From the NCBI GenBank assembly GCA_045596705.1, contig JAZOCW010000032.1, forward strand, positions 629 to 64,628: a stretch of DNA of 64,000 bases. Direction: 5' to 3'. This DNA comes from Acutalibacteraceae bacterium (lineage in GTDB: Bacteria > Bacillota > Clostridia > Oscillospirales > Acutalibacteraceae). Made by a program: the position numbers and the translations under genes. Of this stretch, positions 8,529 to 55,327 are shown piece by piece; position 1 is the stretch's first letter, and every line of letters starts with the position of its first letter. The notes below the pieces were generated by a model. It saw only the letters and a list, made by a program, of their open reading frames with translations. It made no database searches and had not been told where the DNA came from.

Positions 8529-11159
8529 TTAAACCTTTGCAGTCTTGCGCTGAATAAGCTTGACGATCTCTACGATCGGAATGGTCAAGAATGCAAGAAC
8601 CACTGCAACTCCGTACTCTGCAAGCGAGACAGGTGTAAATCCAAAAGCATTTGCTAAGAAGGGTATCTCACAAACAAGCGTTGTGGCAAGAACACTGCCG
8701 ATAGCGGCAAACATAAGTGTTTTATTATTGCTGCCTAATGTGAACAGACTGCCGCGCTGAGAACGCATATTAAAGCTGTGGAATATCTCGGCAAGACTCA
8801 TTGTAAGGAATGCCATTGTCATACCGTCAGCACTGTTTTCAATTGCAAATCTGCCGTGCTCAATAAAGTCACCGATAAAGTAAGACGCCAGGGTGAGTAT
8901 TGATACCATTATTCCCTGATAAGCAATATCAAAGCCCATACCGCCGGAGAAAATTCCTGCCTTTGCGTCACGCGGGCGGCGTTTCATTATTCCGGGCTCT
9001 GCTTTTTCCATTCCGAGTGCCAAAGCGGGGAAGCAATCGGTTACAAGATTTATCCAAAGAAGGTGTACCGGCTCAAGAATTGTAAAGCCGAGCAGGGTCG
9101 CAACGAATATCGAAATGACCTCACTCATATTAGAGCCAAGCAGGAACTGAATCGCCTTACGAATGTTGTCATATATTCGGCGGCCCTCTTCAACAGCACC
9201 TACGATGGTAGCAAAGTTGTCATCTGCAAGCACCATATCGGCAACGTTTTTAGTTACGTCGGTTCCGGTGATGCCCATTCCTACGCCGATATCGGCTGAT
9301 TTTATGGACGGTGCATCGTTTACACCGTCGCCTGTCATAGCGGTAACATAGCCCTCTGAACGCCAGGCATTTACTATTCGGGTCTTGTGCTCGGGCTGAA
9401 CACGGGCGTATACCGATATATCCTTAAAGCAGGCGGCAAACTCTTCGTCGCTCATCTTTGAAAGTTCGGTACCGGTTATAGCACGGCGGCCATCTTGAAG
9501 AATACCGAGTTCCTTAGCTATTGCCGTAGCGGTATCGATGTGGTCACCTGTTATCATTATAGCACGCACACCCGCCGAGTTGCACTGCTCTATAGCCGCC
9601 TTGACCTCGGGACGAACGGGGTCTATCATACCGGTAAGTCCCACAAAGCACAATTTCTCTTCAAGTGACGCAGGCGAGGTGTCCTCGGGAGCCTCATCAT
9701 AATATCTGACCGCGGCGGCAAGCACACGAAGCGCTCTGTCCGCCATACCCTTGTTGGCAGCCAATATCTGAGCACGGTAATCGTCGGTCATAGGAACTAT
9801 TTTACCATCCGATAAATAGCTTTCGCAACGGGCAAGCACCTCGTCGGGAGCGCCCTTGGTATACTGAACTGCCTTGCCGTCAACAGCGTGAACTGTCGAC
9901 ATCATTTTACGGTTGCTGTCAAACGGGGCTTCGCCGATTCTCGGAGTAGCCGCCGCAAGCTCGAACTTCTTAAGTCCGAGTGTATTTGCATAGGCAACGA
10001 GGGCAGCCTCGGTAGGCTCACCTGTTACGGTACCGTCATTTTTCAGCTCTGCATCCGAACAAAGTGCCATTGCGGTGGCAAGCAGTTTTTCATCGGTTGA
10101 GAAATGCTCAACTACCGTCATCTTATTCTGTGTAAGCGTACCTGTTTTATCAGAGCATATTATCTGAGCACAACCAAGTGTTTCGACAGCTGTAAGCCGA
10201 CGGATTATAGCGTTGCGCTTGGACATATTGGTAACGCCTATTGAAAGCACTACGGTAACAACGGCGGCAAGTCCCTCGGGAATTGCGGCAACCGCAAGCG
10301 ATACTGCTACCATAAAAGAATTGAGCACGGTTGAAAACTCGAGACCGTAGCGTATAAGCTGAACGCCGAAGATAACTACGCAGATTCCCAAAACAAGATA
10401 GGTCAGTATCTTTGAAAGCTGAGAAAGCTTCTTCTGCAACGGAGTCTGACCCTCTGCCGCGGTGTTGAGAGCATCAGCTATCTTGCCCATTTCGGTCTCC
10501 ATTCCGGTGCCGGTAACGACATATATACCGCGTCCGTAAACAACGGTACTACCCATATAGACCATGTTTTTACGGTCTCCCAGCGGAACCTCTGAAGAAT
10601 CCTTAAGATTGATTATGTCTATAAACTTGTCGACAGGTACACTCTCACCCGTCAACGCCGCTTCCTCTATTTTCAGGCTGGCGCTCTCTAAAATACGTCC
10701 GTCGGCAGGAACCGAATCGCCCGCTTCGAGTATAACTATGTCACCTACGACAAGATCCTCACTCTTTATCTGGGTGATCTGGCCGTCGCGCAGCACCTTC
10801 GAGGTCGCCGCACTCATCTGCTGTAATGCCTCGAGGGCCCGTTCTGCCTTGTTTTCCTGATAAACGCCGAGCACAGCGTTGACCACTACAACGAAGAGTA
10901 TGATTATAACATCTGTAAAGCCTTCGTTGCTGATAGCAGCCGTAACCGCGCTGATGGCCGCTGCCGCCAGCAGTATTATGGTCATGGGGTCAGCCATTTG
11001 GGCAAAAAACTGCTGTATGAGAGAGGGTTTTTTTGCCTCTTTCAGTTTGTTTTTGCCGTTTTTCTCGAGTCGCTTTGCCGCCTCGTCAGAGGAAAGCCCT
11101 CCCCTGTCAGAGCAAGTTTCCCTCAAAGTCTCCTCAATGCTGTCAGAGTAGAATTTCAT
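8529..11159 (-). CDS. calcium-translocating P-type ATPase (P2A/PMCA-SERCA-like)
   Basis: 876 aa with the DKTGTLT phosphorylation motif, TGES, MITGD, TGDGVNDAPS and 10 predicted TM segments. Confidence 0.9.
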   Translation of the reverse strand: MKFYSDSIEETLRETCSDRGGLSSDEAAKRLEKNGKNKLKEAKKPSLIQQFFAQMADPMTIILLAAAAISAVTAAISNEGFTDVIIILFVVVVNAVLGVYQENKAERALEALQQMSAATSKVLRDGQITQIKSEDLVVGDIVILEAGDSVPADGRILESASLKIEEAALTGESVPVDKFIDIINLKDSSEVPLGDRKNMVYMGSTVVYGRGIYVVTGTGMETEMGKIADALNTAAEGQTPLQKKLSQLSKILTYLVLGICVVIFGVQLIRYGLEFSTVLNSFMVAVSLAVAAIPEGLAAVVTVVLSIGVTNMSKRNAIIRRLTAVETLGCAQIICSDKTGTLTQNKMTVVEHFSTDEKLLATAMALCSDAELKNDGTVTGEPTEAALVAYANTLGLKKFELAAATPRIGEAPFDSNRKMMSTVHAVDGKAVQYTKGAPDEVLARCESYLSDGKIVPMTDDYRAQILAANKGMADRALRVLAAAVRYYDEAPEDTSPASLEEKLCFVGLTGMIDPVRPEVKAAIEQCNSAGVRAIMITGDHIDTATAIAKELGILQDGRRAITGTELSKMSDEEFAACFKDISVYARVQPEHKTRIVNAWRSEGYVTAMTGDGVNDAPSIKSADIGVGMGITGTDVTKNVADMVLADDNFATIVGAVEEGRRIYDNIRKAIQFLLGSNMSEVISIFVATLLGFTILEPVHLLWINLVTDCFPALALGMEKAEPGIMKRRPRDAKAGIFSGGMGFDIAYQGIMVSILTLASYFIGDFIEHGRFAIENSADGMTMAFLTMSLAEIFHSFNMRSQRGSLFTLGSNNKTLMFAAIGSVLATTLVCEIPFLANAFGFTPVSLAEYGVAVVLAFLTIPIVEIVKLIQRKTAKV

Positions 11160-16474: not shown

Positions 16475-16509
16475 AAAAAAGGATTCCCTCATCCGAGGGA
16501 ATCCTTTTT
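16475..16509. terminator. bidirectional intrinsic terminator
   Basis: 10-bp stem ggattccctc/gagggaatcc, flanked by an A-run and a T-run. Confidence 0.8.
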
Positions 16510-17923
16510 ATTTTTTGCTGTTATCTGTTATCTTCTTGCTGTCCTCTGCCGAAAAGCCTTCTGTGCTCTCACGCATAAACATTATCTTTACGGTCATAAG
16601 CAACAGACGGATATCAAGAAAGAATGAATAGTTTTGAATATACATCAGATCAAGTTGGAGCTTATCATACGGAGTAGTGTTATACTTTCCGTAAAGCTGG
16701 GCATATCCGGTTATGCCTCCGCGAACCTTTAGTCTGTAATGGAACTCGGGGATCTGCTCGGTATACTGCTTTACGTGTTCGACCCTTTCGGGGCGCGGGC
16801 CTACGATACTCATATCACCCACAAGCACGTCAATAAGCTGAGGAAGCTCGTCCATGCGCGTTGCCCGCAAGATACGGCCGACAGGAGTAAGCCTTGGGTC
16901 GGATTTCTCCGTCGGGTGGGGTGCTCCGTCCTTTTCAGCATCCACTATCATACTTCTGAACTTATGGATCCTGAAAACCTTGCCGTCAAGGGTGCACCTC
17001 TCCTGCCTGAAGAACACGGGTCCGCCGTCACAAAGCTTTATCGCAATTGCAGAAATCAAAAATATCGGTGAAGTCAGTATGAGCATCACAAACGAAACGA
17101 TTATATCGAAGCCTCGTTTGAGCAGTTGCTGTTCAACGGTAAGCCCTATGTTGCGGTAAAGCAGAAGCGGAGTATCAAACATATGCAGGCACTCTGATCC
17201 GCGAATCAGTATATCCGAGATCTTCGTGGTAGCATAGGTGCGGATGTTATTCTCAAAGCAGATCTTCAATATCTTATTTCTTGTTTCAGCATGAACGTCG
17301 TATATTATTACACATTCGGACTCTTTTATAAGCTCTTCAAGTCCGGTTATTCCGAGCGAAACATTTACTATCTTGTTAACAACGAACTTGTCCTTACGCT
17401 TTGATATCTTGTGTAAAAACACGTCCGGAGAATATCTGTCGTATATAATAAGCGTGTGTTTTGCGGGGAATATCCATCGAAGCAGACCGTCGCCGACAAG
17501 CGTTATTAACACTATAACTATAACATCGGCCGCCAGCATCCACAAAAGCGGAAAAACAGTTACAAATCTTGCCGCCATCAGCACTATCTGCAAATAGATT
17601 ATAAACGCAGTCGCCGCAGCCGCAAGGGTCTGTCCTATAATTATGTTTGCTTTCCTATAACGGCCGTATTTCAGTCCGTCAAAGGTATTGAGAAATACAA
17701 TAAATAAGATTGCATAAACCGCAAAGAAAAACCAGTGTCCCTTTTGAACAAACGGCAGTACTATGTAATTGTTATATTCGGTCAACCAAGCGTGCGCAAA
17801 AATTGCTGTATTTGATAATACTAATACAACACTTAAAAAAAACTTGAATATCTTTTTGTATTTTTCGTAGTTCTGCTTCAAAGAATCACTTCCCTGATTT
17901 CCTAACTTCCGTCCGATATACAT
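16508..17923 (-). CDS. polyprenyl-phosphate glycosyl-1-phosphate transferase (WbaP/EpsL-type bacterial sugar transferase)
   Basis: 471 aa with an N-terminal TM bundle and the C-terminal conserved RPGITGYAQ-like GGITGYAQL, DELPQL and VGPRP. Confidence 0.85.
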   Translation of the reverse strand: MYIGRKLGNQGSDSLKQNYEKYKKIFKFFLSVVLVLSNTAIFAHAWLTEYNNYIVLPFVQKGHWFFFAVYAILFIVFLNTFDGLKYGRYRKANIIIGQTLAAAATAFIIYLQIVLMAARFVTVFPLLWMLAADVIVIVLITLVGDGLLRWIFPAKHTLIIYDRYSPDVFLHKISKRKDKFVVNKIVNVSLGITGLEELIKESECVIIYDVHAETRNKILKICFENNIRTYATTKISDILIRGSECLHMFDTPLLLYRNIGLTVEQQLLKRGFDIIVSFVMLILTSPIFLISAIAIKLCDGGPVFFRQERCTLDGKVFRIHKFRSMIVDAEKDGAPHPTEKSDPRLTPVGRILRATRMDELPQLIDVLVGDMSIVGPRPERVEHVKQYTEQIPEFHYRLKVRGGITGYAQLYGKYNTTPYDKLQLDLMYIQNYSFFLDIRLLLMTVKIMFMRESTEGFSAEDSKKITDNSKK

Positions 17924-17934
17924 AGAACGTAAAA

Positions 17935-18666
17935 TTACTTTTTGACTTGCCTGCTGCGGTTGTCTTTCATAAGTTTTAAGATAAACTTAATATTATTATC
18001 GTAAAACCGTTTTATTCTTTTCGGTTCCTTCATTATACGGTAAAGCCACTCAAGGTTATATTCTATAAAAAACTTCGGCGCACGGGCCTTTTGCCCGCTA
18101 AGCACATCAAAGCTGCCGCCTACGCCGACAAAAATACCTTTTTTAAAATCGTTATAATGCCGGTAGATCAGTTTTTCCTGCGCGGGCATCCCAAGCGCGA
18201 CCAAAACTATATCGGGACTGCTTTGCTTTATTTTTTCAAAGACGGCATCCTTGTCCTCGGTATAGCCGTCAACCGCTCCGCAAAGAGTAATATTAGGGTA
18301 GTCACCTGCTATTCGCTCACAAAGCGTATCAAGCACCTCGCGCTTCGCTCCCAGCAAAAACACCGAGCCGGACGATTCGTCCGCAAACTCTAACAGTTTT
18401 TTTGCAAGCTCGACCCCGGGGATGCGCTCCGCGACGTCCACACCCACCATACGTGCACCCTTTACGATACCGATGCCGTCGGCGATCACCGTCGTGTCCT
18501 CATCACACAGCAGTGCCGCCATATCCTCTTCCCGTTCGCCGAGCATGAAAGCTTCGGGATTGGCTGTTACTATGAACATCTTTTTGCCCTTGATTAAGTT
18601 TTCTTTTACCTGTGCAAAAAAGGCAGCCGCGCCGCCCTTATATATCTTGTCAAAAAAAGCTTTCAT
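17935..18666 (-). CDS. WecB/TagA/CpsF-family glycosyltransferase
   Basis: I chose the start MKAFFDKIYKGG, which lies downstream of the predicted promoter. Family-typical motifs are ...GVGGSFDVLSG....EWLYR. Confidence 0.8.
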   Translation of the reverse strand: MKAFFDKIYKGGAAAFFAQVKENLIKGKKMFIVTANPEAFMLGEREEDMAALLCDEDTTVIADGIGIVKGARMVGVDVAERIPGVELAKKLLEFADESSGSVFLLGAKREVLDTLCERIAGDYPNITLCGAVDGYTEDKDAVFEKIKQSSPDIVLVALGMPAQEKLIYRHYNDFKKGIFVGVGGSFDVLSGQKARAPKFFIEYNLEWLYRIMKEPKRIKRFYDNNIKFILKLMKDNRSRQVKK

Positions 18667-18710
18667 TACTCTTCGGCTCTCTTCACCGTTTTTATTCTTT
18701 TTGTAACAAC

Positions 18711-18739
18711 AGTATACCAAATCCTACTATTTAAGTCAA
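18711..18739 (-). promoter_or_regulatory. sigma-A type promoter TTGACT-17-TATACT
   Basis: Minus-strand TTGACT at 18739..18734 and TATACT at 18716..18711. It lies inside the over-extended ORF-track start, which supports the start at 18666. Confidence 0.5.
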
Positions 18740-23901: not shown

Positions 23902-24903
23902 TTACAGCAATACTATTCCCTTTTCCTCGCAGTCACGAACTACCGCTTCGGGCCAGACAGAGGACTGTACTTCTCCTATATGTGCCTTGCGCAAAAAGAA
24001 CATACACATACGCGACTGACCTATGCCGCCGCCGATGGTATAGGGCAGCTCGCCCGCAAGCAGACGCTTGTGGAAATCGAGCTGGGCACGCTCCTCTACG
24101 CCGCGGATCTTAAGCTGACGCATAAGACTTTCCTCGTCAACACGGATACCCATAGACGAAAGCTCCAGCGCGATGTCAAGTACAGGATAGTACACCAGCA
24201 CATCGCCGTTCAGGCTCCAGTCATCGTAGTCAGGCGCACGGCCGTCGTGTATTTTGCCCGATCTAAGCACGCCGCCTATCTGCATTAAAAATACCGCACC
24301 GTGCTTTTTGGTTATTTCATATTCGCGCTCTTTCGCGGTCAGGTCGGGATACATATCCTCAAGCTCCTGTGCAGTGACAAAGGTTATCTTTTCGGGTAAG
24401 AACTTATGAACGAACTCGTACTCGTCGGCTATATAGTTTTCGGTGTGCTTTAGCGAATTATAAACACATTTTACTGCACTTTTAAGTGTTTTTTCTGTGC
24501 GGTCTTCCTTGTTTATTACCTTTTCCCAGTCCCATTGGTCAACAAGAGCGGAATGAATATTATCCAGATCTTCGTCGCGGCGGATAGCGTTCATATCAGT
24601 ATAAAGTCCCTCGCCGGGACGGAAACCGTAGCGGCCGAGTGCATCGCGCTTCCACTTTGCAAGCGACTGTACTACCTCATACATTCCGTCTTGACCCTTT
24701 ATGTCAAAAGCAACCGGACGCTCAACACCGTTCAGCGTATCGTTAAGGCCCGACTCACGACTGACAAACAGCGGCGCGGAAACACGGGTAAGATTAAGCT
24801 GAATTGCAAGATCTCTTTCAAAAAAATCCTTGACTTTTTTTATGGCTATCTCGGTCTGGCGCGTATCCAGCAAAGATTTATAGCCGTTTTGAAGTTGATT
24901 CAT
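23902..24903 (-). CDS. asnA: aspartate-ammonia ligase (asparagine synthetase A)
   Basis: 333 aa. The typical AsnA N-terminus is [16 protein letters not shown]...[10 protein letters not shown], followed by a class II aaRS-like core. Confidence 0.9.
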
Positions 24904-25035
24904 AGCAATTCTCCTCCGGTAATAAAAACATTTAGGAAATTATATCACATTTTTATTTCTAATTCAATAATAATAATTAATATTATGCACAACTTTCCAA
25001 GTGTTTTTTCGGTCAATCTGACAGCCAACAATTCC

Positions 25036-25064
25036 TTTACTTTTGGCGGTTTGTCTGTTACAAT
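25036..25064 (+). promoter_or_regulatory. extended -10 promoter TTTACT-17-(TGt)TACAAT
   Basis: TTTACT at 25036-25041, TG at 25056-25057 and TACAAT at 25059-25064. This is 31 nt upstream of the first paralogue start. Confidence 0.5.
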
Positions 25065-25095
25065 CGGGGTGACTTGAAATATAGGAGGAATACCT

Positions 25096-26562
25096 ATGGA
25101 AAAGAACCTTAAAGTATGGTTTACCACACCCGAAAAGAAGATCCTTCCAAAATCTCATCTGACCTGGGGCAAGGTCGAGGATTACCACATCTACGTTGCC
25201 AAAAACGCAACAGAGGGATGTCAGGTATCGCTTAAATCCCCCACTGCCAGAAAGAACTTTACTATTGAGGTCGTCGGCGACAGCGCGACCCCGAATTTTG
25301 AAGTAGAGCTTCTGCGTGAGCACTATGTAAGCTGCGCCGGAGCGCTTTACCCCGATCCGGTCGTACCGGATGACGGTCATTTCGACCTTGAAGAGGAGTG
25401 CAACGTTACATACCTCATCAATATCATAACAAATAATGACACCGTTGCCGGCGAATATGCTTTCAAGGTAGTCATTAAGGAGGACGGCGAGCTTTACGGT
25501 GAGTATGACCTGACCGTAACTGTTTGGAATTTTGCCATTAATCCTAAAAAGCATATGGATACTGCTTTCGGTATGGAAAAAAAGAATATTCAGAGAGTGC
25601 AGCCGACCGACGATATTGACGCGCTTTATAAAAAATATTATGATATGCTGCTTAACCGCTATCGCATCTGCGGCTATTACCTGCCGTACGATATTCTTGA
25701 TCCGCGCGCCGACGAATATCTCGACAATCCCAAGGTTACCACCTTTATTATACCCTATGAAGCAGACGATGAAACCATCGTTAAATATTACGAAAAATTA
25801 AGCCGTAAGCCTGAGTGGCTAAAGAAGGGCTTCTTCTATGTTGTTGACGAGCCCTGCAATATGGAGGCTTATAAAAAGATAGAAGCATCACACGAGCGTC
25901 TTAAGAAGCTCTTCCCCGGATATCAGGCGGTTTCTCCCTTCTTTAAGGACCCGACCGACGAAAACGGCAAGCCTGCAGGGGTTCGCGCTGTTGACCTGCT
26001 TGAAAAGTTCTGCAGCGTTTGGTGCCCGAAGATAAACCTTTTCAAGGATCAGTGGTTTGTTGACTACATGCACGACCGCGACAAAAAAGGTGACCGTGCT
26101 TGGTGGTATGTATGCTGGGAGCCGGGACTTCCCTACAGCAACGTATTTATTGATATGGACGGTTTCCATCATAGAGTTTTGCTTTGGCAACAGTATCTGC
26201 ACGATGTACGCGGACTGCTTTATTGGAGCACTACCTGGTGGGGAAAGGTCAATCCGTGGGATTGTTCATCTACCGTAGCAGGCCTTTCATACTACTGCTT
26301 TGGCGACGGCTCTATGTTCTACCCCGGCAACCGCGTAGGTATCGACGGACCGGTAGGTTCCTTGCGTTTTGAGATACTCCGCTACGGTATTGAAGACTTC
26401 TATATGCTGCAGATGGCTGAAGAGGCCTTCGGACGCGAATGGGTCGATGAGCTTGTCAAGAACGTTTCGCCCAATGTGCGTGAATATAACGACGACCACG
26501 ACGAGCTTGACCGTACCAGAATAATTATAGGAAACAAGCTGAGCGAACACTACAGCAAATAG
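25096..26562 (+). CDS. DUF4091 / GH123-like glycoside-hydrolase-family protein, copy A (488 aa, no signal peptide)
   Basis: AGGAGG RBS. Motifs are AKNATEGCQVS, WWYVCWEPGLPY, IDMDGFHHR, YWSTTWW, GDGSMFYPG and GPVGSLRFE. Confidence 0.6.
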   Translation: MEKNLKVWFTTPEKKILPKSHLTWGKVEDYHIYVAKNATEGCQVSLKSPTARKNFTIEVVGDSATPNFEVELLREHYVSCAGALYPDPVVPDDGHFDLEEECNVTYLINIITNNDTVAGEYAFKVVIKEDGELYGEYDLTVTVWNFAINPKKHMDTAFGMEKKNIQRVQPTDDIDALYKKYYDMLLNRYRICGYYLPYDILDPRADEYLDNPKVTTFIIPYEADDETIVKYYEKLSRKPEWLKKGFFYVVDEPCNMEAYKKIEASHERLKKLFPGYQAVSPFFKDPTDENGKPAGVRAVDLLEKFCSVWCPKINLFKDQWFVDYMHDRDKKGDRAWWYVCWEPGLPYSNVFIDMDGFHHRVLLWQQYLHDVRGLLYWSTTWWGKVNPWDCSSTVAGLSYYCFGDGSMFYPGNRVGIDGPVGSLRFEILRYGIEDFYMLQMAEEAFGREWVDELVKNVSPNVREYNDDHDELDRTRIIIGNKLSEHYSK

Positions 26563-26573
26563 GAGACCTTCTT

Positions 26574-28025
26574 ATGGATAAAAATCTTAAAGTGTGGTTT
26601 ACCACACCCGAAAAAAAGATCCTTCCCAAATCTCATCTGACCTGGGGAAAGGTTGAGGATTACCACATCTATGTTGCCAAAAATGCAACAGAGGGATGTC
26701 AGGTGTCCATAATGGCGCCCGATGACCGCCGCGATATGAAGATCGAGGTTTTGGGCGCGGATGACAGCTTCACGGTTTCGCTTTTAAAGGAACATTATGT
26801 TGACTGTGAGGGCGCAAAGTGGCCCGACCCCGTTGTTCCCGATAACGGAAATTTCTCGTTAGAAGCGGGCATCAACACCACTTATCTTATAAACATAAAA
26901 ACCACACCTGAAACGGTAGCGGGCGAGTATAATTTAAAGGCCGTGCTTTATGAACAGGGCGAAATATACGGAGAATATCCCATAACGGTTACCGTATGGA
27001 ACTTTTCTATATCAAATGATGACCGCACCTATATGCTCTCTGATATCAATAAGCAATTTGTGCTAAAGCATCAAAAGACCGATGACCCTGAAGGGCTGAT
27101 CAAAAAGTATTATGATTTTCTGCTTTATGAATATCATACCTGTCCGTATTTATTGCCGTATGATTTTTCCGATTCGAGGATCGATGAGTATTTAGATGAT
27201 CCGCGTGTTAAGGCTTTCTGCTTGCACAGCGCCCGTTACACCGATGAACAATTATCGGCAATACATAAAAAACTTTCTGCGAAAAAAGAATGGCTTGATA
27301 AATGTTTTATAGAGGTTACGGATGAACCTTGTGTTATGGCACATTATGAAAAGCAAAAGGAAGAATACGCACGTGTTTCCAAAGCTTTCCCGAATCCGCC
27401 GGTATACACAGCATTTTTCAAGGACCCGGACGACGGAAACGGAGCAAAAGCCACCGATCTGCTTTCATATTCCAGCAAGATATGGATCCCCAAGAGCACC
27501 CTTTTCAAAACTGCCGAATTCAGAGACTGCATGGAAATGCACCGCTCGCACGGTGACAATATACTTTGGTACGTCTGCTGGGAACCGGGACTTCCGTATG
27601 CCAATATGTTTGTTGATATGGACGGCTTCTATCACAGAGCGCTTTTCTGGCAACAATATATGTATAAGGCTTCGGCCCTTTGCTACTGGACTACTACCTG
27701 GTGGCGCGACTGCAATCCGTGGGACAGCGCTTCCACAGTCCGCGATCTATCAATGTATTGCTTCGGTGACGGCAGTTTGCTTTATCCGGGCGACCGTGTG
27801 GGTATAGACGGTCCTGTGGGAAGTCTTCGCCTTGAGATCGCAAGAAGCGCTATGGAGGACTTCGCCATGCTCAAAATGGCTGAAAGGGCCTTCGGCAGAG
27901 CTTGGGTAGAAGAAAATATAACGTGTGTAACGCCCTCTGTTCGTGAGTACAACGACGACCACAATGAGCTTGACCGCACAAGAATAATTATAGGTAATAA
28001 GCTGAGTGAATACTACAGCAAATAG
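26574..28025 (+). CDS. DUF4091 / GH123-like protein, copy B (483 aa, divergent)
   Basis: 11-nt spacer with a GGAG RBS. It has the same motif set as copy A, and the middle is strongly diverged. Confidence 0.6.
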   Translation: MDKNLKVWFTTPEKKILPKSHLTWGKVEDYHIYVAKNATEGCQVSIMAPDDRRDMKIEVLGADDSFTVSLLKEHYVDCEGAKWPDPVVPDNGNFSLEAGINTTYLINIKTTPETVAGEYNLKAVLYEQGEIYGEYPITVTVWNFSISNDDRTYMLSDINKQFVLKHQKTDDPEGLIKKYYDFLLYEYHTCPYLLPYDFSDSRIDEYLDDPRVKAFCLHSARYTDEQLSAIHKKLSAKKEWLDKCFIEVTDEPCVMAHYEKQKEEYARVSKAFPNPPVYTAFFKDPDDGNGAKATDLLSYSSKIWIPKSTLFKTAEFRDCMEMHRSHGDNILWYVCWEPGLPYANMFVDMDGFYHRALFWQQYMYKASALCYWTTTWWRDCNPWDSASTVRDLSMYCFGDGSLLYPGDRVGIDGPVGSLRLEIARSAMEDFAMLKMAERAFGRAWVEENITCVTPSVREYNDDHNELDRTRIIIGNKLSEYYSK

Positions 28026-28036
28026 GAGGAATTTCC

Positions 28037-29503
28037 ATGGAAAAGAACCTTAAAGTGTGGTTTACCACACCCGAAAAGAAGATCCTTCCAAAATCTCATC
28101 TGACCTGGGGCAAGGTTGAGGATTACCATATCTATGTTGCAAAAAATGCAACAGAGGGATGTCAGGTATCGCTTAAATCCCCCACAGCCAGAAAGAACTT
28201 TTCTATTGAGGTAGTCGGCGACAGCGCGACCCCGAATTTTGAAGTGGAGCTTCTGCGTGAGCACTATGTAAGCTGCGAAGGTGCACTTTATCCCGATCCG
28301 GTCGTACCGGATAACGGTCATTTTGACCTCGAAGAGGAATGCAACGTTACATACCTCATCAATATCATAACAAATAATGACACGGTTGCCGGCGAATATG
28401 CTTTCAAGGTAGTCATTAAGGAGGACGGCGAGCTTTACGGTGAGTATGACCTGACCGTCACTGTTTGGAATTTTGCCATTAATCCTAAAAAGCATATGGA
28501 TACCGCCTTCGGAATCGAGAAGAAATTCCTCTATCTCCGTCAGCCGTCCGATGATCCCGATGCACTTTATAAAAAATATTACGATATGATGCTTGACCGT
28601 TATCGTATTTGCGGCTATGACCTTCCGTACGATATTCTCGACCCGCGCGCCGATGAGTATCTTAATGACCCGAGGGTCACTACCTTTATCATCCCATACA
28701 ACGTTGAGGATGAAAAGATAGTTGCTTACTATAACAAGCTCAGCAGTAATCCCGATTGGTTAAAGAAGGGCTTCTTCTATGTTGTTGACGAGCCCTGCAA
28801 TATGGAGGCTTATAAAAAGATCGAGGCATCACACGAGCGTCTTAAGAAGCTCTTCCCCGGATATCAGGCGGTTTCTCCCTTCTTTAAGGACCCGACCGAC
28901 GAAAACGGCAAGCCTGTAGGGGTTCGCGCTGTTGACCTGCTTGAAAAGTTCTGCAGCGTTTGGTGCCCGAAGATAAACCTTTTCAAGGATCAGTGGTTTG
29001 TTGACTACATGCACGACCGCGACAGAAAGGGTGACCGTGCTTGGTGGTATGTATGCTGGGAGCCGGGTCTTCCCTACAGCAATCTGTTTGTAGATATGGA
29101 CGGTTTCCATCATAGAGTTTTGCTTTGGCAGCAGTATCTGCACGATGTACGCGGACTGCTTTACTGGACCACTACCTGGTGGCGTGATTGCAACCCGTGG
29201 GACAGCGCCTCTACCGTTCGCGACCTTTCCTATTACTGCTTCGGCGACGGCTCGCTCTTCTACACGGGCGACCGCATAGGTATCGACGGACCGGTAGGTT
29301 CCTTACGTTTCGAGATTCTCCGCTACGGTATTGAAGACTTCTATATGCTGCAGATGGCAGAAGAGGCCTTCGGACGCGAATGGGTCGACGAGCTTGTAAA
29401 GAACGTTTCGCCCAATGTACGCGAATATAACGACGACCATGACGAGCTTGACCGCACCAGAATAATCATTGGTAATAAACTCAGCGAGTATTACAATAAA
29501 TAA
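28037..29503 (+). CDS. DUF4091 / GH123-like protein, copy C (488 aa)
   Basis: 11-nt spacer with an AGGAGG RBS. It is close to copy A except for a central cassette and a B-like patch. Confidence 0.6.
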   Translation: MEKNLKVWFTTPEKKILPKSHLTWGKVEDYHIYVAKNATEGCQVSLKSPTARKNFSIEVVGDSATPNFEVELLREHYVSCEGALYPDPVVPDNGHFDLEEECNVTYLINIITNNDTVAGEYAFKVVIKEDGELYGEYDLTVTVWNFAINPKKHMDTAFGIEKKFLYLRQPSDDPDALYKKYYDMMLDRYRICGYDLPYDILDPRADEYLNDPRVTTFIIPYNVEDEKIVAYYNKLSSNPDWLKKGFFYVVDEPCNMEAYKKIEASHERLKKLFPGYQAVSPFFKDPTDENGKPVGVRAVDLLEKFCSVWCPKINLFKDQWFVDYMHDRDRKGDRAWWYVCWEPGLPYSNLFVDMDGFHHRVLLWQQYLHDVRGLLYWTTTWWRDCNPWDSASTVRDLSYYCFGDGSLFYTGDRIGIDGPVGSLRFEILRYGIEDFYMLQMAEEAFGREWVDELVKNVSPNVREYNDDHDELDRTRIIIGNKLSEYYNK

Positions 29504-29516
29504 AAGGGGTATTAAA

Positions 29517-30473
29517 ATGATCAAAAAAGACGCAACAAGAATTTTCAAGCGCTATGAAGGCAACCCGATCCTTGACGTTAAGGATTTTCCCGGTGTTGCA
29601 CAGCTCTACAACCCGTCTCCTGTAATGTACGGCGATGAGACCATACTTCTCATCTCGGTCGTTGACCATGCCGCAACCCGCGGCTACGGACGTGACGTTG
29701 GACAGACCCGTATCGCCCGCAGTAAGGATGGCATCAACTTCACGCTTAGTGATGAAGATTTCATTAAGCTTGATGATAGCCAGTATCCCAACAAGCTGTT
29801 CCATCACTTTATCGACAACCGTACTACCAAGATCGACGATACATACTATATGGTAACCCCCGTAATGGTACACGGCTACGGCACACCTCTCGGATACCTC
29901 GGTAAGACCAAGGATTTCGAGACCTATACCCCCATCGCCGCCATCACCGCACCTGCAAACCGCGGCGCATCACTCTTCCCTGAGAAGATCGGCGGCAAAT
30001 ACTACAAGCTTGACCGTCCGTCTACACCGACCTCTGCCGGCGATATCTGGATCTCGGCAAGCGAAGACCTCGTTCACTGGGGCGAATTTAAACCGGTAAT
30101 AGCACACGGCTACCGTTTCTGGAACAGCCAGAAGATGGGCCCCACTCCCCCAATCAAGACCGACAAGGGCTGGCTCGTTATTGTTCACGGCGTATTCGAT
30201 CCGGCAGGCGGCGACCAGTATTACCTCGGCGCTATACTGCTTGACCTCGAAGAGCCCTGGAAGGTTATCGGCAAAACAAACAGCTACATCCTCGGACCGG
30301 AGGAAGAGTACGAGCTCCACGGCAACAGCGACAATACCTGCTTTGCCTGCGGCGCAATTGCCGACTATGATAAGGATCAGATCAGACTTTACTACGGCGG
30401 AACAGATAAGTATATCTGTCTTGCAACCGGATGTCTTTCCGAACTCGTTCAAGCCTGTATTGACCAGATCTAA
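29517..30473 (+). CDS. GH130-family glycoside phosphorylase (beta-mannoside phosphorylase-like)
   Basis: I chose the ATG at 29517 (MIKKDATRIFKRYEGNPIL). Motifs are RGASLFPEKIGGKYY..DRP, DIWIS.S.DL.HW, GPTPPIKT.KGWL..HGV, Y.LGA.LLDLE.PWKV and RLYYGG.D. Confidence 0.75.
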   Translation: MIKKDATRIFKRYEGNPILDVKDFPGVAQLYNPSPVMYGDETILLISVVDHAATRGYGRDVGQTRIARSKDGINFTLSDEDFIKLDDSQYPNKLFHHFIDNRTTKIDDTYYMVTPVMVHGYGTPLGYLGKTKDFETYTPIAAITAPANRGASLFPEKIGGKYYKLDRPSTPTSAGDIWISASEDLVHWGEFKPVIAHGYRFWNSQKMGPTPPIKTDKGWLVIVHGVFDPAGGDQYYLGAILLDLEEPWKVIGKTNSYILGPEEEYELHGNSDNTCFACGAIADYDKDQIRLYYGGTDKYICLATGCLSELVQACIDQI

Positions 30474-30476
30474 CAT

Positions 30477-30508
30477 AAAAACCCCTGCCATACGGCAGGG
30501 GTTTTTTA
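30477..30508. terminator. bidirectional intrinsic terminator
   Basis: 9-bp stem acccctgcc/ggcaggggt, flanked by A4 and T6. Confidence 0.85.
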
Positions 30509-30520
30509 TGTTATTCTATT

Positions 30521-31435
30521 TTAACCTAATTCATCAAAAAGTCCGAGGACAACTATGCCTACTACGGCAAGTCCTATCATAATATAATGCTTTACAGAAA
30601 GCTTTTCTTTCAAGAAGATTCTTCCCCATACAACCGATGCAAGGCAATATGCCGAGATGATGGGTGCACTCATTACAAGATGCTCGCTGTCAGATATAGC
30701 GTATATATAAGAGAACTGACCTGCAGTCTCAAACAATGCGCCGACATACTTCGGTGCCTCGCGACCCGGCAAGAACTTTGCCTTTTTAACAAACTTAAGC
30801 CAAATGAAGCTTATAACACCGCAAAGCAGGAATGTAAGCTCATAGGCGACGTTTGCGCTATCCTCATCGAGTGTTTCGAGCACAAGGCTGTCTGCAAAGG
30901 TGCCTGCGGCATCAAGCACACAGTAGAGTATGGGCAGCAGCAACGCAAGGACTGATTTTGAATACTTGTAGTTCGACTTTTCCTGACGCAGAGCGCGCTT
31001 TTCATCATCCTCAAAGTGTTCAACAAGGCCGAGACCTATTACGGCAACGCAGACCAGCGCAACCGCACCTAACTGCCAACCGTTTATACTGCCGAGGCCA
31101 AAGAATATAAGCGAAAGAATAGCGACTAATGCACCTGAGGAATTACATACCGGCGAAGAAACCGAAAGCTCGATATAACGCAGACCTAAATATCCGAGCG
31201 TCATCGAGAATATGTAAAGCAACGATACGGGCAGATATTTTAGCATAACTTCCCACGATATTGCTGTTCCGCCTATGAATATCTCATATGCGGCGTGCAG
31301 ACCCATTACGGTACCGACAGCAGTCACCATTTTAAGGTGGCTGTTTTTATCATCAGCATCACGACAGCCTATCTTTGAAAACAAGTCCGATCCGCTCCAA
31401 CAAAGAAGCGTTATAATTGATAACCAAAACCACAT
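30521..31435 (-). CDS. DMT-superfamily (EamA-like) permease
   Basis: 304 aa with about 10 TM segments in two EamA-like halves. Confidence 0.7.
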   Translation of the reverse strand: MWFWLSIITLLCWSGSDLFSKIGCRDADDKNSHLKMVTAVGTVMGLHAAYEIFIGGTAISWEVMLKYLPVSLLYIFSMTLGYLGLRYIELSVSSPVCNSSGALVAILSLIFFGLGSINGWQLGAVALVCVAVIGLGLVEHFEDDEKRALRQEKSNYKYSKSVLALLLPILYCVLDAAGTFADSLVLETLDEDSANVAYELTFLLCGVISFIWLKFVKKAKFLPGREAPKYVGALFETAGQFSYIYAISDSEHLVMSAPIISAYCLASVVWGRIFLKEKLSVKHYIMIGLAVVGIVVLGLFDELG

Positions 31436-37078: not shown

Positions 37079-37555
37079 TTATTTGCCTTCTTTTACCTGC
37101 TTACCCGTGAACGGGTCTATATACTCTACCAATGACATTTGATCGTAAGATATATCTTCCTGTAATTGATTTCGTATGTATTCTGCAATTGCTTTTTTAT
37201 TTCTTCCTACTGTATCTACATAATATCCTCTACACCAAAAATGCCGGTTTCCGTATTTATATTTCATGTTGGCATATTTCTCAAAAATCATTAAACTGCT
37301 TTTTCCTTTGAGATATCCCATTATTTGTGATACACTATACTTAGGCGGTATGGATACCAGCATATGTATGTGGTCTTTGCAGGCTTCTGCTTCTATTATT
37401 TCTACCTGCTTATACTCACATAATTTCCTAAGCATTATTCCTATATCTGCCTTTATCTTTCCATAGATTACTTGGCGGCGGTATTTTGGTGCAAAAACTA
37501 TGTGATATTTGCAATTCCATTTTGTGTGTGCTAAACTATCTGTGTCAAGTTTCAT
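37079..37555 (-). CDS. tnpA: IS200/IS605-family Y1 (HUH) transposase TnpA
   Basis: 158 aa. MKLDTDSLAHTKWNCKYHIVFAPKYRR carries the HUH-type HIV motif, and a second H.H is in DHIHMLVSIPP. Confidence 0.9.
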   Translation of the reverse strand: MKLDTDSLAHTKWNCKYHIVFAPKYRRQVIYGKIKADIGIMLRKLCEYKQVEIIEAEACKDHIHMLVSIPPKYSVSQIMGYLKGKSSLMIFEKYANMKYKYGNRHFWCRGYYVDTVGRNKKAIAEYIRNQLQEDISYDQMSLVEYIDPFTGKQVKEGK

Positions 37556-53389: not shown

Positions 53390-54219
53390 GCGGAAAGCTT
53401 TATGTGGTCGGAACGCCTATAGGTAATCTGGGCGATATGTCCCCCCGCGCTATTGAAACTCTCAGTAGTGTCGATTTTATTGCCGCTGAGGATACAAGGG
53501 TTACAATGAAACTGCTCAACCATTTTGATATACGTAAACCCCTTGTCAGCTATTTTGAACACAACAAGGCGGAAAAGACCGAAAAATTACTTAATAGGTT
53601 GCAAAACGGAGAAAATTGTGCTATTGTAACAGATGCAGGAATGCCTGCAATATCTGACCCCGGTGAGGACCTTGTCCGCGCCTGCCGAGAAAACGGTGTT
53701 GAGGTCGAGTCGGTTCCCGGACCCAGCGCTGTCATAACTGCGCTTTCGGTCTGCGGATTGAGCACAGGCAGATTCTGCTTCGAGGGCTTTTTGTCGGTCA
53801 ACAAGCAAAGCAGAAAAAGACATCTCGATTTGCTTAAGGACGAAACAAGGACAATGATATTTTACGAGGCGCCTCACAAGCTTCCTGCAACGCTCAAGGA
53901 TATGCTTGCGGCGTTCGGCGACAGGCAGATAGCGCTTTGTCGCGAGCTGACAAAGCTCCACGAAGAGGTGCGCAGGACAAGCCTTAGCGAGGCGGCAGAG
54001 TTTTATTTGCAAAACCCGCCGAGAGGCGAATTTGTACTTATAATTGAGGGAAAGAAAGAACAAGAGGCTGAGAAATTCACACTCGAACAGGCGGCAGAGC
54101 TTGCAATACAGCTGGTTTCGGGCGGCAGCAGCGCGTCGGCGGCGGCAAAAGAGGCTGCCGCAATAAGCGGACTGAAAAAAGGCGATATATACAGAATGAT
54201 TATTGAAAAGGAAGAGTAA
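53386..54219 (+). CDS. rsmI: 16S rRNA (cytidine1402-2'-O)-methyltransferase
   Basis: LYVVGTPIGNLGD and EDTR motifs of the tetrapyrrole-methylase-like RsmI family. Confidence 0.9.
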   Translation: MSGKLYVVGTPIGNLGDMSPRAIETLSSVDFIAAEDTRVTMKLLNHFDIRKPLVSYFEHNKAEKTEKLLNRLQNGENCAIVTDAGMPAISDPGEDLVRACRENGVEVESVPGPSAVITALSVCGLSTGRFCFEGFLSVNKQSRKRHLDLLKDETRTMIFYEAPHKLPATLKDMLAAFGDRQIALCRELTKLHEEVRRTSLSEAAEFYLQNPPRGEFVLIIEGKKEQEAEKFTLEQAAELAIQLVSGGSSASAAAKEAAAISGLKKGDIYRMIIEKEE

Positions 54220-54220
54220 A

Positions 54221-55327
54221 ATGGGAAAGCACGAGGAGATACGTTCCGAGTCGGTCGATATTTACAGCAGTGCCAAAAAGGTGAAAAAGGCTAAAAGGAA
54301 AAAGAAAAAAACCTCTGTCGGAAAGAGGATTGCAATAGCGATCCTGTCGGTATTTATCTGCATTATGCTGGTCGCTACCGGCGGATTGATTTTCCTTATG
54401 AATTATTTTGATTATAACAAGACCGAGGTCGATCTTGGCGCACTCGGTGTTAACAGCGAGGATTCGGAAGACCACATTGTAAATATTGCGCTTTTCGGAA
54501 TCGATACGAGAAATACCGCTTCAATGAAGGGTCTTTCCGATTCGATAATGATACTCAGCGTTAATAAGGAAACCAAGCAGTTAAAGCTTATTTCAGTAAT
54601 GCGTGACAGCGTTGTAATGGTTGACGGAAAGGCCGCCAAGATAAACTCTGCCTACAGCAAGGGCGGCGCGGAGCTTGCAATACGCACATTAAACGAAAAC
54701 TTCGGGTTGGATATAACCGATTACGCAACGGTAAACTTTGTAGGAATGGCAGAGCTTATTGATGTTGTCGGCGGAATAGACGCGGAGGTAACGCAGGCAG
54801 AGATAAATGACTCACTGCACGGAGTTAACTATCAAATACTGGAACAGTCAAATATGCTCGGAATTGAGCCTGAATATGTAAAGAATCCCGGACTGCAGAC
54901 CCTTAACGGAATACAGGCAGTCAGCTGGGCAAGAATACGCTATCAGCCCACTGCGGCTGGAGAGCGCGATGACTACGGCAGAACAGCCCGTCAGCGCCAC
55001 GTTATTAATCAGCTTTTCCAAAAGGCAAAGGAAATGAGCCTTTTTGAATATCCAAAGTTCATCAAAACGATGATACCCTATGTTGAGACCTCGCTTGACG
55101 AGAAGGAGATAGTATCGCTTGCTTATGCGGTTATAAAGGGCGGTACGCTCAACAGTACCCGCATACCGTACGATAACTGTTTGATAGGCGGTAACGGCGG
55201 TGTTGCAGGCGGCGTATATTACAATCTTGATTTCGCATCTGAGCTAATAAAGTCATATGTATATGACGACATCACCTTTGATGCGTATATTGAGGCAAAC
55301 GGAATAGATAAAACGCCCTGGCGTTAA
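54221..55327 (+). CDS. LytR-CpsA-Psr (LCP) family protein
   Basis: I chose the ATG at 54221. It has a basic N-terminus, one TM segment, and NIALFGIDTR...SDSIMILS.... Confidence 0.85.
   Translation: MGKHEEIRSESVDIYSSAKKVKKAKRKKKKTSVGKRIAIAILSVFICIMLVATGGLIFLMNYFDYNKTEVDLGALGVNSEDSEDHIVNIALFGIDTRNTASMKGLSDSIMILSVNKETKQLKLISVMRDSVVMVDGKAAKINSAYSKGGAELAIRTLNENFGLDITDYATVNFVGMAELIDVVGGIDAEVTQAEINDSLHGVNYQILEQSNMLGIEPEYVKNPGLQTLNGIQAVSWARIRYQPTAAGERDDYGRTARQRHVINQLFQKAKEMSLFEYPKFIKTMIPYVETSLDEKEIVSLAYAVIKGGTLNSTRIPYDNCLIGGNGGVAGGVYYNLDFASELIKSYVYDDITFDAYIEANGIDKTPWR

Follow-up and report, generated by a model that had tools for sequence, protein, structure and literature searches.

Introduction

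Sumida et al. 2024 (PMC11087588) established the DUF4091 proteins of Groups 1-4 as beta-N-acetylgalactosaminidases and the Group 2 enzyme NgaAt as a beta-N-acetylhexosaminidase, and CAZy has merged the four groups into glycoside hydrolase (GH) family 123. In that study a small Group 1 'prototype' with an open cleft releases Gal-beta1,3-GalNAc (Gal, galactose; GalNAc, N-acetylgalactosamine), NgaAt cleaves Gal-beta1,4-GlcNAc-pNP (GlcNAc, N-acetylglucosamine; pNP, p-nitrophenyl), and insertions that close the -2 subsite make the Group 4 and classic GH123 enzymes strictly exo-acting. On the GH130 side, TM1225 and Uhgb_MP have been placed in GH130_2 as beta-1,4-mannoside phosphorylases (PMC12814180), and RaMP2 is given as a beta-1,4-mannooligosaccharide phosphorylase (PMC8950772). 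A full-text search of the literature for the two families together yielded CAZyme inventories only, with no functional link, and a search on GH130 phosphorylases and N-acetylgalactosamine yielded nothing relevant. Here we analyse a locus that pairs the two families, three tandem GH123-like genes (open reading frames ORF1-3) followed by a GH130 gene (ORF4), in a stretch of 64,000 nucleotides (nt) from an Acutalibacteraceae bacterium (contig JAZOCW010000032.1, positions 629 to 64,628; hereafter the window, to whose numbering all positions refer). Both enzyme families are known; their pairing is unreported, yet conserved.

We consider it reasonably probable that this operon of an uncultured gut Acutalibacteraceae (Oscillospirales) bacterium encodes a two-stage cytoplasmic catabolic pathway for glycans that contain N-acetylhexosamine (HexNAc). 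In the first stage, the three GH123-family enzymes would hydrolyse beta-linked GlcNAc or GalNAc bonds in oligosaccharides already inside the cell, through the substrate-assisted retaining catalysis of GH123, which runs via an oxazolinium intermediate and in which Asp251 would orient the 2-acetamido group and Glu252 would act as acid/base; loop patches specific to each copy might confer different linkage or aglycone preferences. In the second stage, the GH130 enzyme would phosphorolyse the resulting beta-glycoside, most probably a beta-mannoside, into a sugar 1-phosphate and a free sugar, which would save one ATP. In a concrete version, drawn by analogy with the action of NgaAt on Gal-beta1,4-GlcNAc-pNP, a GH123-like enzyme would cut after a substituted HexNAc, for instance between the two GlcNAc residues of Man-beta1,4-GlcNAc-beta1,4-GlcNAc (Man, mannose), and the GH130 enzyme would consume the disaccharide.

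Sumida et al. identified no biological role for the 'prototype' GH123 Group 1/2 enzymes, and the locus gives genetic access to their natural substrate. It also sets a highly conserved GH130 orthogroup, one whose acceptor subsite is non-canonical, within a compact operon, which gives a short list of candidate substrates, and it points to a lineage-specific move into the cytoplasm by a glycosidase family that is normally anchored at the cell surface, with tandem paralogue arrays. This bears on how uncultured gut Oscillospirales split glycan breakdown between the outside and the inside of the cell. The four genes are as follows (aa, amino acids):

25096-26562, plus strand: ORF1, 488 aa, GH123-family (PF13320) B-type paralogue, predicted cytoplasmic beta-N-acetylhexosaminidase-like protein
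26574-28025, plus strand: ORF2, 483 aa, GH123-family 'A'-lineage paralogue, DEP motif intact
28037-29503, plus strand: ORF3, 488 aa, GH123-family B-type paralogue, directly 5' of the GH130 gene as B-types are in relatives
29517-30473, plus strand: ORF4, 318 aa from the ATG, predicted GH130 inverting glycoside phosphorylase (the mechanical reading frame begins at a TTG, 29469)

Results and discussion

ORF1-3 as members of GH123

All three tandem proteins match the Pfam family PF13320 (GH123_cat, formerly DUF4091), with E-values of 3.7e-20, 6.6e-17 and 2.6e-17 and scores of 73, 62.3 and 63.6 bits for ORF1, ORF2 and ORF3 against a gathering cut-off of 23.1; NCBIfam gave no match for any of them. 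An earlier note, made from the letters of this DNA alone, had expected the four proteins to match PF13320/GH123-like and GH130 hidden Markov models, which Pfam confirmed, and the motifs that it quoted as shared (AKNATEGCQVS, WYVCWEPGLPY, DMDGFxHR, YWxTTWW, GDGSxxYxG and GPVGSLRxE) are all present and invariant in the three copies. Its statement that stand-alone DUF4091 proteins have no established activity is outdated by the work of Sumida et al. 2024 (PMC11087588).

The characterised enzyme that matches best in sequence is NgaAt (Group 2, 8k2h; E = 4.7e-26 with a single sequence and 8.6e-45 with a profile), and the profile also retrieved NgaCa (Group 1, 8k2f; 5.8e-42) and NgaDssm (Group 3; 8.4e-32), with weaker matches, ~1e-10 to 1e-13, to Group 4 and classic GH123 enzymes. 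An AlphaFold2 model of ORF1 (predicted local distance difference test score 90, predicted template-modelling score 0.91) gave the same picture: in Foldseek it superposed on NgaAt (8k2h) with a template-modelling (TM) score of 0.85 (E = 7e-35), on NgaCa with 0.77 and on Group 4 and classic GH123 structures with 0.67-0.77, and the top 22 matches were all GH123/Group 1-4 structures (TM 0.67-0.85). The modelled architecture is minimal, with an N-terminal beta-sandwich, a (beta/alpha)8 barrel and C-terminal helices.

The catalytic pair D251-E252 (VVDEPC / VTDEPC) is present in all three copies, where it aligns to the DE pair of NgaAt; in GH123 this motif lies at the end of barrel strand beta4 (PMC11087588). 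Both the likeness to solved GH123 structures and the retention of catalytic residues in each copy, on which the earlier note had staked its family assignment, were thus borne out. The family alignment also shows no variation at D87, W144, G403-G405, Y409 and R424, most of which align to identical residues of NgaCa or NgaAt; together with D251 and E252 they are likely equivalents of the nine residues conserved across groups, which include, in NgaLy numbering, D95, W115, D327, E328, G427, Y466 and R478 (PMC11087588).

Within GH123, the sequence comparisons lead us to place ORF1-3 as distant members of the Group 1/2 part of the family. NgaAt (Arabidopsis AT1G45150, 8k2h/8k2i; PMC11087588) is the best match in both sequence and structure at 22% identity, and its DE motif, GDG, Y and R pillar residues and Leu555 (the conserved L397 of ORF1) all align. 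However, NgaAt is a plant protein of 646 aa with a much longer N-terminal region and an extended beta2 element carrying Trp329, whereas ORF1-3 are bacterial, 483-488 aa long, encoded in tandem and linked to a GH130 gene. Membership of Group 2 itself was rejected: the defining Trp329 insertion (ckWgesmrv in NgaAt) has no counterpart in the family profile.

NgaCa of Cohnella abietis (Group 1, 8k2f/8k2g), a strictly oligosaccharide-releasing beta-N-acetylgalactosaminidase of 516 aa, shares the minimal architecture, with the N-terminal sandwich aligned from residue ~4 and the DUF4091 region aligned to the C-terminal end. Size and the missing insertions fit Group 1, whose open cleft has Trp residues in subsites -2 and -3; identity is only ~20%, and the central barrel of NgaCa, with the subsite tryptophans W197, W218 and W249, does not align by sequence. 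ORF1-3 are also shorter than NgaCa, whose genomic context differs, no GH130 being reported there. The classic GH123 enzymes (NgaP, CpNga123, BvGH123 and Uhgb_GH123), which act on glycosphingolipid/ganglioside glycans, have the fold, the DE pair and the Pfam family in common with ORF1-3, but they are only 12-15% identical and ~560-600 aa long, and extra hairpins and loops close their -2 subsite to give pocket-type exo enzymes. Because ORF1-3 lack the -2-closing insertions of the exo-only GH123 enzymes, including the Trp329 insertion of NgaAt, they are more likely to be of the cleft type, able to release oligosaccharides or to tolerate HexNAc substituents.

ORF4 as a GH130 phosphorylase

ORF4 matches PF04041 (GH130) with E = 3.9e-42 and 144.8 bits, and among solved structures TM1225 (1vkd; 6.8e-58) is its closest relative, with Uhgb_MP and RaMP2 next. 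Its residues were mapped, through an alignment with Uhgb_MP, onto the key residues tabulated by Li et al. 2020 (PMC7660257):

Uhgb_MP D104, proton donor: ORF4 D100
Uhgb_MP R168 / H231, phosphate binding: ORF4 R167 / H224
Uhgb_MP R150, +1 subsite: ORF4 R149
Uhgb_MP D304, +1 subsite: ORF4 D297
Uhgb_MP Y103, +1 subsite, linkage-setting: ORF4 I99
Uhgb_MP R59, +1 subsite: ORF4 S47 or V48, no Arg

By the published criteria for phosphorylases, namely PF04041, a donor Asp, phosphate-binding Arg/His and no signal peptide, all of which ORF4 carries, it is predicted to be one. ORF4 has in common with the GH130_2 enzymes (TM1225, Uhgb_MP, RaMP2 and BT1033) the five-bladed propeller family, the donor Asp, the phosphate Arg/His, Arg150, Asp304 and the lack of a signal peptide. 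It departs from them at Tyr103, where the GH130_2 pair Tyr103/Arg150 is replaced by Ile99/Arg149, and at the near-universal Arg59, where it has Ser47 or Val48 and a conserved insertion, ATRGYGRDVGQT, after that position. The NCBIfam equivalogs were also below cut-off (202 vs 550).

The position of Tyr103 tracks linkage, with Tyr in beta-1,4 enzymes and Glu in beta-1,2 and beta-1,3 enzymes (PMC7660257). Given the Ile at this position and the lack of Arg59, a beta-1,4-mannoside or N-glycan-core specificity cannot be assumed, so that the beta-mannoside and N-glycan-core substrates first proposed for this locus are not established. Rather, the unusual +1 subsite argues that the true acceptor of ORF4 may differ from those characterised so far. 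ORF4 resembles the sequence-similarity meta-node UC6 of Li et al., a group marked by the lack of a base and by Ile (or Met) where Uhgb_MP has Tyr103, and flagged by those authors for a possible new linkage specificity; the protein that represented it, U6, proved insoluble and was never characterised (PMC7660257). The donor Asp, the phosphate Arg/His, the Ile at Tyr103, Arg150, Asp304 and the absence of a signal peptide all agree, but an Arg is tabulated for UC6 at the Arg59 position, where pairwise alignments give none in ORF4; the resemblance, a comparison by published signature only, is best taken as a lead. A 2025 GH130 paper mentions no further subfamilies, and the 'GH130 xylanase' AH2 was rejected as a relevant relative, being GH130_1-like and 79% identical to 3WAS.

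ORF4 belongs to an orthogroup of 317-aa proteins that are 70-77% identical across Clostridium, Sumerlaeota and Pontiella (Bacillota, Kiritimatiellota, Sumerlaeota), and the motif HHFIDNR is present in 8/8 orthologues read, among 120 listed. Such high identity across phyla may reflect horizontal transfer.

Conserved linkage of the GH123-like and GH130 genes

A comparative scan that took one genome per species returned 77 loci (numbered with the prefix L), nearly all from uncultured Acutalibacteraceae, Oscillospiraceae or Clostridia metagenome-assembled genomes, many of them titled ruminant or other animal gut. In the closest clade (L001-L008 and L027, with GH123-like proteins 68-79% identical), a GH130 gene whose product is 91-97% identical to ORF4 lies at most ~20 nt 3' of the last GH123-like gene in 9/9 loci. 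The number of GH123-like copies varies from one (L003, L005) through two (L001, L002, L006, L007, L008, L027) to three (L004 and the window). One to three GH123-like genes plus GH130 thus occupy one syntenic position in ten Acutalibacteraceae genomes including that of the window, flanked by MGMT-asnA on one side and by Met-gamma-lyase and alanine-symporter genes on the other. Across these loci GH130 is more conserved (91-97%) than the flanking asnA (86-90%), and the GH123-like proteins (68-79%) evolve faster. Comparative genomics therefore backs a functional coupling of the GH123-like genes with GH130, in line with the earlier note's view of a set 'hard-wired' to a phosphorylase.

The wider neighbourhoods of the module and of its GH130 differ between lineages. 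The module of L001 adjoins AraC, two GH29 fucosidases, GH13 and a solute-binding protein, and that of L082 adjoins AraC and a fucose isomerase. In other lineages the GH130 orthologues belong to sugar loci that also encode ABC or MFS importers, sulfatases, GH3 and fucosidases, where they are directly preceded by TIM-barrel glycosidase-like genes unrelated to the GH123-like ones. This suggests a conserved 'last-step' phosphorylase that would be fed by lineage-specific upstream hydrolases.

We weighed the possibility that the GH123-like genes and GH130 are mere neighbours, sharing a transcript while the GH130 enzyme acts on an unrelated, widely available disaccharide. Elsewhere the GH130 orthogroup is indeed paired with GH5-like genes, GH42-like genes, an FAD-oxidoreductase plus GH3, or nothing upstream, and the GH123-like genes of a sister clade come without GH130. 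Yet an adjacency of ~10-20 nt has been kept in 9/9 of the closest loci despite changes in copy number and 20-30% divergence of the GH123-like proteins, and the glycosidase-like gene found immediately 5' of GH130 in other lineages too fits a 'last-step' enzyme; we hold mere adjacency to be very improbable.

In Kiritimatiellota and other uncultured bacteria, GH130 orthologues with 72-77% identity to ORF4 have proteins of 440-610 aa on their flanks (L084:6322-7986 and 8954-10789; L093:6648-7979), with sulfatases, MFS/ABC importers and AraC nearby. These flanking proteins show weak GH5/GH42 signals or none and look like unclassified glycosidases that would supply the same phosphorylase. That the Kiritimatiellota proteins are cryptic GH123s was considered and rejected, their Pfam results being a weak GH5 match or none.

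Evolution of the three copies

The three paralogues expected from the letters alone are there, but they do not form a set of equals. ORF1 and ORF3 share 91% protein and 89% nucleotide identity, ORF1 and ORF2 only 60% protein identity. In a neighbour-joining tree, ORF2 falls into an 'A' lineage with the upstream copies of six relatives (including L004, L006, L007, L008 and L027), an old lineage, and ORF1 and ORF3 fall into a 'B' lineage of GH130-adjacent copies; each lineage has been kept in at least six genomes. L004 has the same order, B-A-B-GH130, as the window, with more divergent B copies.

The identity between ORF1 and ORF3 is a mosaic: most of the gene is 92-100% identical, and codons ~157-180, ~201-240 and ~378-400 fall to 62-74%. 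Outside these three patches, synonymous divergence (dS) is 0.27 and nonsynonymous divergence (dN) 0.019 (dN/dS ~0.07); inside them dS is saturated and dN reaches 0.23. At 378-400, ORF3 and ORF2 both keep the family consensus TTTWWRDCNPWDSASTVRDLS, and it is ORF1 that has diverged (STTWWGKVNPWDCSSTVAGLS, in the loop after beta8), likewise the first copies of L003 and L004. From the order of the secondary-structure elements in the ORF1 model we infer that the patches sit in the loops after barrel strands beta1, beta3 and beta8. The substrate-binding loops of (beta/alpha)8 glycosidases follow the barrel strands.

At the other extreme, residues 1-45 are 98-100% identical in the three copies (25096-25230, 26574-26708, 28037-28171), with a dS of 0.57 and a dN of 0.009. 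Recent gene conversion was rejected as the sole cause of these identical N-termini, since such values amount to strong purifying selection. Altogether, the substitution patterns indicate that the three genes are under purifying selection and that the array is more than a recent dosage duplication.

It has to be asked whether the multiplicity reflects gene dosage and concerted evolution, ORF1 and ORF3 being redundant recent duplicates instead of two among three specificities. Their overall identity, with long stretches at 97-100%, would fit, as would the copy number of one to three in close relatives, where a single B-type gene with GH130 evidently suffices in L003 and L005. But ORF2, just 60% identical, represents a separate lineage in at least six genomes, and the differences between ORF1 and ORF3 are clustered in the three patches, including the beta8 loop, with saturated dS and a dN of 0.23. 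The departure of this loop from the consensus recurs in the first copies of L003 and L004, the B-A-B-GH130 order recurs in L004 with B copies that are further apart, and a dS of 0.27 outside the patches makes the duplication not very recent. We consider the dosage explanation unlikely.

Cellular location

No hydrophobic N-terminal segment or lipobox was found in the four proteins (maximal Kyte-Doolittle means over 12 residues of 0.07-0.57), in agreement with the first inspection of the sequence, and the beta-sandwich of ORF1 takes in its very N-terminus, which aligns with NgaCa residue ~12. Among the best 120 homologues, those of at most 510 aa never have a hydrophobic N-terminus (0/80), whereas those above 510 aa usually do (36/40) and half of them carry a lipobox (20/40); relatives that are 36-42% identical are lipoproteins. 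A library clustered at 50% identity gave 3904 matches at E <= 1e-3 and 267 at E <= 1e-30; in it a single match (P0053) was more than 50% identical to ORF1, and most other relatives were N-terminally extended proteins matching ORF1. Because the short homologues lack export signals and the longer relatives are extended or lipoproteins, the cytoplasmic location appears to be a derived trait of a narrow lineage.

The proposed pathway and the points that weigh on it

Several observations count against the two-stage catabolic pathway. The nearest characterised GH123 enzymes share just 20-23% identity with ORF1-3, and for NgaMg, which belongs to Group 1, no activity could be detected (PMC11087588). 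The cleft-type assignment is based on sequence length and alignment gaps, not on coordinates, and the non-canonical +1 subsite of ORF4 makes even 'beta-mannoside' an extrapolation. A sister clade (55-62% identity) has two to three tandem GH123-like copies and no GH130, so the GH123-like proteins do not strictly need this partner, and one monophyletic lineage of sister-clade paralogues has lost the catalytic Glu (DEP to DTP/DVP/DIP) while keeping the Asp. Finally, no importer, regulator or mannose-1-phosphate enzyme was found in the unit or elsewhere in the 64-kb window, which is otherwise housekeeping; the absence of an importer and a regulator from the unit had been noticed from the start.

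This last feature would suit a role in which the module recycles the cell's own envelope glycopolymer, not nutrients from foraging. The substrates trimmed would then be intracellular or lipid-linked, contain HexNAc and Man(NAc), and be either precursors of a secondary cell-wall polysaccharide or capsule or products of its turnover; GH130 would salvage the sugar 1-phosphate for a new round of synthesis. An operon with neither transporter nor regulator, set among housekeeping genes at a stable syntenic position, is compatible with such a role. The window also encodes an undecaprenyl-phosphate sugar transferase (Bac_transf) together with a WecG/TagA-type glycosyltransferase (16508-18720, minus strand), ~7 kb ahead of the operon, and, further downstream, a LytR-CpsA-Psr ligase (54203-55327, plus strand). 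Sister-clade arrays stand beside hprK-ROK-murB-whiA with YitT interleaved, and Li et al. raised alpha-Man1P recycling for fungal GH130. However, these cell-wall genes are at least 7 kb away, and their link to the module is hypothetical. In relatives the module abuts AraC, GH29, GH13, a solute-binding protein or fucose isomerase, as is typical of catabolic loci, and the GH130 orthologues of other phyla lie in loci with ABC/MFS importers, sulfatases and GH3. We judge envelope recycling to be distinctly unlikely. All three alternatives, mere adjacency, gene dosage and envelope recycling, are less well supported than the two-step catabolic pathway.

Taken one step further, the catabolic pathway could be a cytoplasmic route of a kind not described before, in which a cleft-type, endo-like GH123 enzyme would release a beta-glycosyl-HexNAc disaccharide from imported glycans and a GH130 enzyme of new specificity (Ile99, no Arg59; UC6-like) would phosphorolyse it. 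A cut in the chitobiose core, for example, would give Man-beta-HexNAc, or there might be a GalNAc-containing equivalent. We put this forward as a long shot; if true, it would provide the first physiological substrate for a Group 1/2-type GH123 and the first activity for the ORF4-type GH130 subfamily.

Another gene of the window, at 57546-59306 (minus strand), encodes a protein of 586 aa that combines the GLAA-B beta-barrel domains I and II with a right-handed beta-helix, an architecture which we take to be that of a GH110 alpha-galactosidase-like enzyme. It hints at host-glycan use elsewhere in the genome.

Operon anatomy

The four genes are bracketed by the following elements:

25036-25064, plus strand: candidate promoter, sigma-70-type with extended -10 (9/12 match and conserved position)
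30477-30506, both directions: intrinsic terminator with an A-run, a 13-bp GC-rich stem, a 4-nt loop and a T-run
30521-31435, minus strand: EamA/DMT permease gene, convergent with the operon

One strand, short gaps, one promoter and one terminator are what a single transcription unit calls for, and the four genes form one operon by this anatomy; they are probably co-transcribed. The four same-strand ORFs are separated by 11, 11 and 13 nt (ORF1-2, ORF2-3 and ORF3-4), exactly as first read, and a purine-rich ribosome-binding site precedes every one of them (AGGAGG for ORF1 and ORF3, AGGAGA for ORF2, a weaker AAAGGGG for ORF4).

The promoter candidate (TTTACT-17 nt-TG-n-TACAAT, also written TTTACT-17-TGTTACAAT) lies inside the divergent intergenic region, 192 nt long, that separates asnA from ORF1. 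Its 9/12 match is weak, such matches being frequent in the region (18 found in a scan vs 10.6 +/- 3.3 expected). What supports it is the conserved position of the boxes: the -35 and -10 boxes are kept with the same spacing and position 5' of the first gene in L003, L004, L005, L007, L008 and L027, although the sequence around them varies among these six orthologous loci. The extended -10 promoter called in the earlier note thus stands on that conservation, and the strong bidirectional terminator that it described proved solid: the fold has a dG of -27.9 kcal/mol (z = -8.9) and 0/200 shuffles fold as well. With an A-run and a T-run flanking the stem, the terminator would be usable by the convergent EamA gene too. 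Internal terminator-like matches (26347, 29288) are weak 5-bp stems within coding sequence. An Rfam search of 24800-30700 at a permissive E-value returned no riboswitch or leader, only two chance matches on the terminator.

The convergent permease gene, first singled out as the only transporter candidate nearby, is real; it is not conserved with the module and probably lies outside the unit. None of the fetched loci gave a match to it, and GH130 is followed directly by the Met-gamma-lyase gene in L007; not being conserved at the syntenic loci, the EamA permease was rejected as an importer for the module, and it has the look of an insertion specific to this lineage. At 37079-37555 (minus strand), ~6.6 kb beyond the 3' end of the operon, the window carries an IS200-type Y1 transposase gene (PF01797, E = 1e-40).

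Sister clade and distant relatives

A gene for a YitT membrane protein interrupts the arrays of the sister clade, which adjoin hprK-ROK-murB-whiA. In L079 (9113-9982) and L081 (11467-12336), this YitT/DUF2179 membrane protein is encoded between two GH123-like genes, in an array directly upstream of hprK-ROK-murB-whiA-dnaE, a cell-envelope and carbon-control neighbourhood. The copies that have lost the catalytic Glu, which may be inactive, glycan-binding or mechanistically altered, are the following:

L010:5838-7328, Glu-less copy
L011:7549-9009, Glu-less copy
L013:4748-6229, Glu-less copy
L016:3315-4796, Glu-less copy
L021:2522-3982, Glu-less copy
L025:7302-8762, Glu-less copy

Further out, a predicted lipoprotein of 491-495 aa (lipobox IFSC; 50-67% identity among its members) directly adjoins lipoprotein-type GH123-like genes in at least seven distant-clade loci, among them:

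L028:8356-9843, lipoprotein of 491-495 aa
L087:1388-2875, lipoprotein of 491-495 aa
L088:8513-9988, lipoprotein of 491-495 aa

It has no Pfam match, and a relationship to the GH123-like proteins was rejected (hhalign probability 0.1, no match to a Protein Data Bank chain); it may serve as a divergent partner that binds solutes or glycans. Among 86 immediate neighbours of distant GH123-like genes, tallied by Pfam family, neither sugar transporters nor glycoside hydrolases were enriched, and the commonest families were the peptidases U32 (8 members) and M29 (7).

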